Shown piece after piece: positions 1,529-15,900 of a DNA stretch of 64,000 bases (the first letter of the stretch is position 1; each line of letters starts with the position of its first letter). The stretch comes from Escherichia coli (lineage in GTDB: Bacteria; Pseudomonadota; Gammaproteobacteria; Enterobacterales; Enterobacteriaceae). A model generated the notes under the pieces. It searched no databases. It worked only from the letters and a program-made list of their open reading frames with translations, and was not told the DNA's origin. The position numbers and the translations under genes are program-made. The stretch lies in NCBI RefSeq assembly GCF_009931435.1, contig NZ_CP043414.1. One strand, given 5' to 3'.

Positions 1529-3702
<2,174 letters not shown>

Positions 3703-11015: not shown

Positions 11016-11050
11016 CGATGGCGTTGAATATTTTTTCAGCGCCATTTTTA
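11016..11050 (+). terminator. Terminator-like hairpin closing the folC-dedD transcription unit
   Basis: ggcgttgaa-tatttttt-cagcgcc hairpin followed by a T-rich tract. Confidence 0.4.
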
Positions 11051-11074
11051 TTGATGCGTGGGAAGGAAATCCCT

Positions 11075-11090
11075 ACGCAAACGTTTTCTT
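11075..11090. promoter_or_regulatory. PurR operator (pur box) of the cvpA-purF operon
   Basis: acgcaaacgttttctt matches the PurR box consensus (aCGCAAACGtTTTCnT), about 57 bp upstream of the cvpA ATG. Confidence 0.7.
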
Positions 11091-11146
11091 TTTCTGTTAG
11101 AATGCGCCCCGAACAGGATGACAGGGCGTAAAATCGTGGGACACAT

Positions 11147-13283: not shown

Positions 13284-13853
13284 ATGAAACGACTTATTGT
13301 GGGCATCAGCGGTGCCAGCGGCGCGATTTATGGCGTGCGTTTATTACAGGTTCTGCGTGATGTCGCAGATGTTGAAACGCATCTGGTAATGAGCCAGGCC
13401 GCGCGCCAGACCTTATCCCTTGAAACGGATTTCTCCCTGCGTGATGTGCAGGCATTAGCCGATGTCACGCACGATGCGCGCGATATTGCCGCCAGCATCT
13501 CTTCCGGTTCTTTCCAGACGTTGGGGATGGTGATTTTACCCTGTTCAATCAAAACCCTGTCCGGCATTGTGCATAGCTATACGGATGGCTTACTGACCCG
13601 TGCGGCAGATGTGGTGCTGAAAGAGCGTCGCCCGCTGGTGCTCTGCGTGCGTGAAACACCGTTGCACTTAGGCCACCTGCGTTTAATGACTCAGGCGGCA
13701 GAAATCGGTGCGGTAATTATGCCTCCCGTTCCGGCATTTTATCATCGCCCACAATCCCTTGATGATGTGATAAATCAGACGGTTAACCGTGTTCTTGACC
13801 AGTTTGCGATAAATCTACCCGAAGATCTCTTTGCCCGCTGGCAGGGCGCATAA
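13284..13853 (+). CDS. ubiX: Flavin prenyltransferase UbiX
   Basis: 189-aa ORF; flavoprotein motif GISGASGAIYG. Confidence 0.9.
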   Translation: MKRLIVGISGASGAIYGVRLLQVLRDVADVETHLVMSQAARQTLSLETDFSLRDVQALADVTHDARDIAASISSGSFQTLGMVILPCSIKTLSGIVHSYTDGLLTRAADVVLKERRPLVLCVRETPLHLGHLRLMTQAAEIGAVIMPPVPAFYHRPQSLDDVINQTVNRVLDQFAINLPEDLFARWQGA

Positions 13854-13861
13854 CTCCGCTG

Positions 13862-13884
13862 TTGCCCTGTTTCAGGGCAATTTT
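13862..13884 (+). terminator. Rho-independent terminator after ubiX
   Basis: ttgccctg-ttt-cagggcaa hairpin followed by tttt. Confidence 0.6.
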
Positions 13885-14044
13885 GCAACCGCGATCAAAT
13901 CCTCAACATTTTGTTCCTGCCATTCAATCTAAACGCTGCGATCCAACCGCCATACCTGCTATCTTCAACTTCAGGACAATAATGCAACGTCTTATTAACA
14001 TATTTAACGTTGAATGTTACTGTTGTCGTCAAGATGGCATAAGA

Positions 14045-14060
14045 CCTGCATGAACGAGCC
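14045..14060 (+). promoter_or_regulatory. Candidate sigma54 (-24/-12) promoter of argT
   Basis: tggcat-aagac-ctgca fits the TGGCAC-N5-TTGCA spacing, about 58 bp upstream of the argT ATG; argT is nitrogen-regulated in enterics. Confidence 0.45.
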
Positions 14061-14117
14061 TGCAAACACACAACACAATACACAATATAAAAAAGCCATT
14101 TCACTTGAGGGTTATGT

Positions 14118-14900
14118 ATGAAGAAGTCGATTCTCGCTCTGTCTTTGTTAGTCGGGATTTCCGCAGCAGCTTCCAGCTACGCGGCACTGCCGGAGACGGT
14201 ACGTATCGGAACGGATACCACCTATGCACCGTTCTCATCGAAAGATGCCAAAGGTGACTTTGTTGGCTTTGATATCGATCTCGGTAACGAGATGTGCAAA
14301 CGGATGCAGGTGAAATGTACCTGGGTTGCCAGTGACTTTGACGCGCTGATCCCCTCACTGAAAGCGAAAAAGATCGACGCCATTATTTCGTCGCTCTCCA
14401 TTACGGATAAACGTCAGCAGGAGATTGCCTTCTCCGACAAACTGTACGCCGCAGACTCTCGTCTGATTGCTGCCAAAGGTTCACCGATTCAGCCAACGCT
14501 GGATTCACTGAAAGGTAAACATGTTGGTGTGCTGCAGGGATCAACCCAGGAAGCGTATGCCAATGATAACTGGCGCAGTAAGGGTGTCGATGTGGTGGCC
14601 TATGCTAACCAGGATTTGGTCTATTCCGATCTGGCTGCAGGACGCCTGGATGCCGCTCTGCAAGATGAGGTTGCTGCCAGCGAAGGTTTCCTCAAGCAAC
14701 CTGCCGGTAAAGATTTCGCTTTTGCAGGCCCTTCAGTGAAAGACAAAAAATACTTCGGTGACGGCACCGGTGTCGGGCTACGTAAAGATGATGCTGAACT
14801 GACGGCTGCGTTTAATAAGGCGCTTGGCGAGCTGCGTCAGGACGGCACCTACGACAAGATGGCGAAAAAGTATTTCGACTTTAATGTCTACGGTGACTGA
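14118..14900 (+). CDS. argT: Lysine/arginine/ornithine-binding periplasmic protein
   Basis: 260-aa ORF with signal peptide; about 70% identical to the adjacent hisJ paralog. Confidence 0.9.
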
Positions 14901-15117
14901 TACGTCGCAGGGAAGCTGTACCTGATGGAATGATCATGGTGCACGCCAGGTTTGTTGCACTATCGTGGTGCATTAAAATGCATACTTAAGCATTTTTAAT
15001 GAAAAATAATACGTCTAACGGGGCGGGATATTTTGCCTTGATGGTCAATTTTATGGCACGATAAGTGTAACAAACCTGTAAATATTCCCTATAAAAAGAC
15101 TGTCAGTTGAGGACATT

Positions 15118-15900
15118 ATGAAAAAACTGGTGCTATCGCTCTCTCTGGTTCTGGCCTTCTCCAGCGCAACGGCGGCGTTTGCTGCGATTCCGCAAAACAT
15201 CCGCATCGGTACCGATCCGACCTATGCGCCATTTGAATCAAAAAATTCACAAGGTGAACTGGTTGGCTTCGACATCGATCTGGCGAAGGAATTGTGCAAA
15301 CGCATCAATACGCAATGTACGTTTGTCGAAAACCCGCTGGATGCGTTAATCCCGTCCTTAAAAGCGAAGAAGATTGACGCCATCATGTCATCGCTTTCCA
15401 TTACGGAAAAACGTCAGCAGGAAATTGCCTTCACCGACAAACTGTACGCTGCCGACTCTCGTCTGGTAGTGGCGAAAAATTCCGACATTCAGCCGACAGT
15501 CGAGTCGCTGAAAGGCAAGCGCGTAGGCGTATTGCAGGGCACCACCCAGGAGACGTTCGGTAACGAACACTGGGCACCAAAAGGCATTGAAATCGTCTCT
15601 TATCAGGGGCAGGACAACATTTATTCTGACCTGACTGCCGGACGTATTGATGCCGCATTCCAGGATGAGGTCGCCGCCAGCGAAGGTTTCCTCAAACAAC
15701 CCGTCGGTAAAGATTACAAATTCGGTGGCCCGTCTGTTAAAGATGAAAAACTGTTTGGCGTAGGTACCGGCATGGGTCTGCGTAAAGAAGATAACGAATT
15801 GCGCGAGGCACTGAACAAAGCCTTTGCCGAAATGCGCGCTGACGGTACTTACGAGAAATTAGCGAAAAAGTACTTCGATTTTGATGTTTATGGTGGTTAA
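15118..15900 (+). CDS. hisJ: Histidine-binding periplasmic protein
   Basis: 260-aa ORF with signal peptide ([22 protein letters not shown]); followed by hisQMP. Confidence 0.9.

Follow-up and report, generated by a model that had tools for sequence, protein, structure and literature searches.

RNA polymerase holoenzyme containing sigma-54 forms a closed complex on promoters with a GG/GC core, and an AAA+ enhancer-binding protein is required for the opening of the DNA. Among such promoters, glnAp2 possesses two high-affinity NtrC boxes at -108 and -140, and glnHp2 combines NtrC boxes with an IHF site. The argT promoter, argTp, shares with glnAp2 and glnHp2 the -24 GG/-12 GC core, a closed complex that needs phosphorylated NtrC (NtrC-P) and ATP, and membership of the Ntr regulon. 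In Escherichia, argTp differs from both, since the 200 bp that precede it contain neither an NtrC box with at most one mismatch nor an IHF consensus.

The closest described systems are the argT promoters of E. coli K-12 (argTp in EcoCyc/RegulonDB; OS22) and of Salmonella Typhimurium (argT, STM2355), which carry the same 17-mer as the present locus, ATGGCATAAGACCTGCA, between the same neighbours, ubiX upstream and argT-hisJQMP downstream. In K-12 this sequence is the sigma-54 ChIP-seq site OS22, with a fold above threshold of 12 (PMC4591121), and in Salmonella LT2 the same 17-mer is a sigma-54 ChIP-chip site (PMC3844500). When a constitutive activator was present, Salmonella argT showed a 3.5-fold sigma-54-dependent expression (WT/delta-rpoN), and it was counted among the four sigma-54 operons known from experiments, NtrC being named as its activator (PMC3844500). 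Furthermore, argTp was a target of the purified RpoN holoenzyme in gSELEX, with peak heights of 61% and 55% (PMC8743547). Occupancy of this exact sequence by sigma-54 is established.

Related cases are the class I/II sites of Schaefer 2015 and Salmonella glmY/glmZ, at which, as at argT, the sigma-54 footprint overlaps a sigma-70-type initiation region and the two holoenzymes compete. The argT site differs in that it occupies +6 to +22 relative to the sigma-70-like start, hence downstream of it, and does not fully cover the -35/-10 region.

Position, sequence and conservation of the argT core element

The window, i.e. the whole stretch of 64,000 nucleotides (64 kb) that was analysed, carries cvpA, purF, ubiX, argT, hisJ and hisQMP in this order on the + strand according to the open reading frame list, as does K-12 MG1655. 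The following features define the region of interest:

13284-13853, + strand: ubiX, an open reading frame matching the UbiX NCBIfam equivalog model.
14034-14050, + strand: the sigma-54 core promoter argTp, ATGGCATAAGACCTGCA, identified by sequence, position weight matrix (PWM), ChIP identity and conservation.
14118-14900, + strand: the argT coding sequence (lysine/arginine/ornithine periplasmic binding protein, 260 aa), identified by its open reading frame, an NCBIfam equivalog and the RefSeq annotation under BLAST matches.
15118-15900, + strand: hisJ, an open reading frame matching the HisJ NCBIfam equivalog with 599 bits (cut-off 459).

The ArgT protein matched the equivalog NF011586 with 583 bits (cut-off 440). 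The spacer between ubiX and argT comprises 264 nt, and the argT upstream region (291 bp) is 98% identical to that of K-12, from which it departs by seven substitutions in the spacer and by an argT leader that is one T shorter. When complete E. coli genomes were searched with a 601-bp query, 5,425 of 5,426 were matched, with ubiX and argT annotated beneath the matches. Over the stretch 13700-14300, an identity of at least 99% was reached in just 7 of these 5,425 genomes, most of them falling between 95 and 99%, and the closest match (99.8%) was a goat isolate. The small number of near-identical genomes points to a somewhat divergent and uncommon E. coli lineage as the source of the window.

The element itself, TGGCATAAGACCTGCA, was found at 14035-14050 on the + strand and reads TGGCAT-N5-CTGCA, with AAGAC as the five spacer bases. 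Its GG (14036-14037, positions -25/-24) and its GC (14048-14049, positions -13/-12) are exactly 10 bp apart, so that the sigma54-type GG/GC spacing claimed in the earlier note was borne out. Two positions depart from the TGGCAC-N5-TTGCA consensus, namely C to T at -22 and T to C at -15. The motif is intergenic and lies in the ubiX-argT spacer on the same strand as argT, at a plausible distance for a start site, its first and last bases being 83 and 67 nt upstream of the argT ATG (14118). The earlier note had rightly recognised a motif here but had placed it at 14045-14060, about 10 bases away from the true site, an interval which covers just the -12 half (CTGCA, 14046-14050). The distance of 58 bp to argT that accompanied this placement had to be abandoned; 58 is the distance in K-12 between the predicted start site and the argT ATG (Bonocora 2015, Table 1; PMC4591121).

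For a quantitative comparison, a sigma-54 PWM was built from the 41 other intergenic E. coli sites defined by ChIP-seq by Bonocora et al. 2015, argT being left out. The scan for RpoN sites that had been proposed as a check gave argTp a score of 15.0 bits, the second best among 127,968 positions of the window, and this value is in the middle of the range covered by the 42 ChIP-defined intergenic sites.

The same matrix was applied to a cross-species set, for which a single genome of each species was scanned for the argT codons that encode GTDTTYAPF. This set comprises 46 loci of Enterobacteriaceae, including Escherichia, Salmonella, Citrobacter, Pseudocitrobacter, Kluyvera, Buttiauxella, Cedecea and others. 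At all 46 loci, the top PWM match in the 520 nt upstream was situated 162-181 nt before the GTDTTYAPF landmark, and every one of these matches had the form TGGCA[TC]-N5-[CA]TGCA with differing spacer bases. When 15 genus-level representatives were aligned, all nine positions of the core (TGGCA and TGCA) were 100% identical, while the identity averaged 70% in the motif spacer and 67% in the rest of the ubiX-argT spacer region. The motif is thus deeply conserved, and the 46-species result agrees with a published S5 table in which the motif is conserved out to Yersinia, Serratia and Dickeya.

We consider it very probable that the motif is the known promoter itself, that is to say the already documented nitrogen-regulated sigma-54 promoter of argT. 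Since argTp is already a catalogued member of the Ntr/sigma-54 regulon, its importance beyond a correct annotation is slight.

Nitrogen control and the overlapping sigma-70-like promoter

Nitrogen induction of argTp has been reported to be lost upon deletion of glnG (ntrC) and restored by complementation. The -24/-12 motif cannot by itself identify the activator, and the assignment of NtrC is experimental and does not come from the sequence. In N-starved cells, an NtrC ChIP-seq signal was recorded over the argTp core promoter; this peak (5.4-fold) was the weakest of its table and was called by hand, by eye (PMC4066584). In a glnK mutant, which contains more NtrC-P, an argTp-lacZ fusion was 2.4-fold up, the range being 2.4- to 3.2-fold when argT mRNA is included (PMC4958250). 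Finally, argT has been summarised as sigma-54/NtrC-dependent and hisJQMP as sigma-70/ArgR-regulated (PMC6640053). The NtrC-dependent, nitrogen-regulated expression of argT from a sigma-54 promoter proposed in the earlier note is therefore supported by the literature (NtrC ChIP-seq, the glnK mutant and PMC6640053), and the link of argT expression to sigma-54 and NtrC is established.

According to the mechanism that we propose, RNA polymerase-sigma-54 would bind the GG (14036-37) and the GC (14048-49) and give a stable closed complex. Under N limitation, phosphorylated NtrC would contact sigma-54, and ATP hydrolysis would open argTp. Transcription would then proceed from near 14061 and yield an argT mRNA with a 57-nt C/A-rich leader under the control of the sRNA GcvB. 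As long as NtrC is inactive, the parked holoenzyme would also occlude a sigma-70-like promoter whose start is situated about 5 nt upstream of the motif. The features concerned are listed below:

13956-13965, + strand: CTGCTATCTT, an invariant block situated at about -100 relative to the sigma-54 start and in the form of a TGn-extended -10 element.
13995-14029, + strand: a putative sigma-70-like promoter, with a -35 TTAACA (13995-14000), a 17-bp spacer, a TG-extended -10 TACTGT (14015-14023) and a start at about 14029.
14061, + strand: the transcription start predicted for sigma-54 by the rule of Bonocora 2015, counted 19 nt downstream from the motif centre (14042).
14062-14117, + strand: the argT 5' leader, with a C/A-rich tract at about 14064-14084 (core ACACAACA) and a Shine-Dalgarno sequence GAGGG (14107-14111).

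The sigma-54 motif has been described as occupying positions +6 to +22 of a sigma-70-like argT start (PMC4551910, Table S3), which places this start near 14029, about 5 nt upstream of the motif. The hexamers TTAACA and TACTGT are our proposal from the letters of the window. A simple sigma-70 scan called no promoter upstream of argT because the -10 matches the consensus at just 3 of 6 positions. Within the putative -35, TAACA (13996-14000) was invariant in the 15 genus-level representatives, as was the block CTGnTATCTT (13956-13965), and neither of them matched the NtrC or the IHF consensus. An inverted repeat, TAACAT-N12-ATGTTA, was also noticed at 13996-14019, just upstream of the sigma-54 core, both in the window and in K-12; it is probably fortuitous, as it is not kept in Salmonella or Citrobacter.

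The overlap raises the possibility that the main function of the site is repression that depends on sigma-54, with a silent holoenzyme acting as a roadblock that limits sigma-70 transcription and with sigma-54 activation being minor. In N-replete medium, the argT reads obtained with rpoN amounted to 23% of those of the vector-only delta-rpoN strain and, in vitro, sigma-54 lowered the sigma-70 abortive transcripts by 10-60%, the motif being placed at +6 to +22 (PMC4551910). The concept of sigma-54 as a repressor is stated in general terms in PMC8743547, and GcvB interaction datasets contain many argT reads from LB cultures (PMC9299463). On the other hand, the induction of argT linked to nitrogen and NtrC is documented, and the invariant GG/GC with its canonical spacing across genera fits a productive promoter. 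Moreover, the repressor and activator roles are compatible and do not exclude each other. A predominantly repressive site thus appears possible but rather doubtful, and a nitrogen-regulated promoter is the reading that we retain.

The same data bear on the idea, put forward in the earlier note, that unchanged expression in an rpoN mutant would speak against the promoter. This idea is incomplete, argT being higher without rpoN in N-rich medium (PMC4551910). An rpoN mutant can show this behaviour because the bound sigma-54 holoenzyme blocks the overlapping sigma-70-like promoter, so that a test of the rpoN mutant in N-rich medium would mislead. It also follows from the higher argT level without rpoN that much of the basal argT expression is sigma-54-independent.

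Besides, argTp has been employed as a sigma-54 promoter for pathway expression and engineering, and when 12 promoters were compared, the highest activity was that of a cloned argTp fragment of 198 bp corresponding to 13863-14060 (PMC7045595). The sigma-70-like promoter could supply part of the activity of this fragment, which starts exactly at the palindrome of the ubiX terminator (13863) and ends at the equivalent of 14060 (PMC7045595).

As concerns the transcription start, the leader predicted here has 57 nt, not the 58 of K-12, because of the T that is missing from it. A literature search found no mapped argT 5' end (primer extension, dRNA-seq) near 14061, and the EcoCyc status of E. coli argTp was 'predicted', without experimental confirmation, as of Bonocora 2015. 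Position 14061 is accordingly given as a predicted start. In the leader, the C/A tract, which we take to be the GcvB site known from Sharma et al. 2007, includes the hexamer ACAACA (14069-14074), invariant across genera in the 15 representatives. Since argT is a verified or conserved target of the GcvB R1 seed (PMC9299463), this targeting and the invariant ACACAACA tract fit a start located upstream of the tract.

NtrC boxes around argT and hisJ

An NtrC box was defined as TGCACC-N5-GGTGCA, typically located 100-150 bp upstream of the promoter. In a mismatch scan of 13855-14060, no NtrC box with one mismatch or fewer was detected, so that Escherichia argTp departs from the canonical upstream-enhancer arrangement. 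An IHF site between a putative enhancer and argTp was likewise rejected, as no IHF consensus with at most one mismatch was found in 13855-14060. The sequences that come into consideration are the following:

13861-13888, + strand: the ubiX intrinsic terminator, GUUGCCCUG-UUU-CAGGGCAAU followed by UUUU, with a folding energy of -15.5 kcal/mol (z = -2.9).
14956-14972, + strand: TGCACTATCGTGGTGCA, an NtrC box free of mismatches between argT and hisJ; no other sequence of the 64-kb window matches perfectly.
15053-15069, + strand: a decayed sigma-54-like element, ATGGCACGATAAGTGTA, before hisJ, with a PWM score of 12.8 bits (rank 9) and GT for GC at -12.

The best NtrC look-alike in 13855-14075 was the terminator palindrome, with 2 mismatches and its centre at -190, the next best having 4 mismatches. 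This palindrome, TGCCCTGTTTCAGGGCA, occupies 13863-13879 within the ubiX terminator; it was not adopted as an NtrC site, its 2 mismatches being symmetric (box positions 4 and 14) and the sequence folding as a terminator, the stem of which is kept in Pseudocitrobacter with compensatory end changes.

In related genera the situation is different. Pseudocitrobacter and Buttiauxella possess NtrC boxes with 1-2 mismatches in a segment bounded by the ubiX stop codon and the terminator, some 200 bp ahead of the -24 element. The box in that segment has the form TGCRCCAnnnTGGTGCW, as was seen when positions 13854-13862 of the window were compared with the loci L005, L023 and L020. Escherichia is devoid of this segment of about 25 bp, and Salmonella and Citrobacter retain a half-site only.

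The nearest perfect box is that of the argT-hisJ spacer, about 0.9 kb downstream of argTp. Boxes with 0-1 mismatches are positionally conserved in this spacer in most genera and, in K-12, the same box lies under a 23.7-fold NtrC ChIP-seq peak that was assigned to hisJQMP (PMC4066584). Escherichia argTp might have lost an upstream NtrC enhancer of its own and depend instead on the hisJ-proximal box, re-used as a remote downstream enhancer. We regard this as unlikely, because the short cloned argTp fragment is active on its own.

NtrC is able to act from remote or weak sites and, reportedly since the work of Reitzer and Magasanik in 1986, does so at kilobase distances. For this reason, the missing upstream box lowers the claim of a canonical architecture only; it affects the delivery of activation and not the identity of the promoter. 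In Escherichia, the sequence does not reveal the site from which NtrC would serve argTp.

A further possibility would be that argTp is sigma-54-dependent but driven by an enhancer-binding protein other than NtrC. Such an activator would agree with the lack of a recognisable NtrC box upstream of Escherichia argTp, with the weak NtrC ChIP signal at argT and with the main text of the gSELEX paper, in which argT and hisJ appear in the RpoN target tables only (PMC8743547). It is nevertheless very improbable, as argT is induced with the Ntr regulon, is classed as an NtrC target and responds to the deletion of glnK, and as boxes close to the NtrC consensus are present in related genera some 200 bp ahead of the -24 element. 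NtrC is consequently retained as the activator of argTp.

Downstream of argT, the predicted start of the hisJ element (15080) is 116 nt downstream of the centre of the NtrC box at 14956-14972. In Pseudocitrobacter and in most species of each of Citrobacter, Kluyvera and Buttiauxella, the orthologous elements scored 17.7-18.5 bits, while the -12 region contains GT in Escherichia and reads CCGCA in Salmonella. The hisJ element is absent from the E. coli sigma-54 ChIP-seq lists, and its Salmonella counterpart is given as predicted in a footnote, which mentions evidence against activity ('not an active promoter'). This looks like the lineage-specific decay of a second NtrC/sigma-54 promoter, of which the NtrC box is still perfect and occupied.

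The earlier note had also proposed that the argT promoter is separate from that of hisJ. The separation holds in the sense that hisJQMP is sigma-70/ArgR-regulated (PMC6640053), but NtrC binding is not confined to argT, being stronger at the argT-hisJ spacer (23.7-fold) than at argTp (5.4-fold) (PMC4066584). An A/T-rich tract that separates the NtrC box from the hisJ core (TTAAAATGCATACTTAAGCATTTTTAATGAAAAATAAT, 14975-15016) coincides with the literature location of two ARG boxes, through which ArgR represses hisJQMP. That the regions upstream of argT and of hisJ are paralogous was unsupported: the best local alignment score, 21, was reached by 92 of 1000 shuffled sequences, and MAFFT did not place the two -24/-12 elements in register.

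Chance expectation of the motif

The 64-kb window contains a single occurrence of the degenerate pattern TGGCAY-N5-YTGCA, as against 0.27 expected, and 23 of 100 shuffles contain at least one. A random sequence of 64 kb is expected to contain, both strands taken together, about 1.07 PWM matches as good as argTp; at least one was present in 71% of the simulations. The motif alone is therefore not significant in 64 kb and is no better than chance. When the search is limited to the 264-nt ubiX-argT spacer and to the correct strand, the chance expectation falls to about 0.002, as estimated from the rate of the PWM simulation. Apart from argTp, the six best PWM matches of the window comprise those at 3440, 60573, 42790, 62509 and 53059, none of which is contained in the published ChIP tables.

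As about one equally good match arises by chance per 64 kb, the sequence alone does not establish argTp, the reality of which rests on the cross-species footprint and on the published ChIP data. That the motif near argT is itself a chance match, as the expected match per random 64 kb, the 23% of shuffles with the degenerate pattern and the lack of ChIP counterparts for the other five top matches could suggest, is ruled out by these data, since the identical sequence is occupied by sigma-54 in two species and in vitro, and since the core is invariant, the spacer variable and the position fixed in 46 species. For genome scans, this means that a lone sigma-54 consensus match in 64 kb carries no significance and that position and conservation are the evidence.

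None of the 20 best PWM matches of the window is situated at about 11050-11146, upstream of cvpA. In K-12, a weak gSELEX peak of the RpoN holoenzyme (31-32%) was recorded upstream of cvpA-purF-ubiX (PMC8743547).
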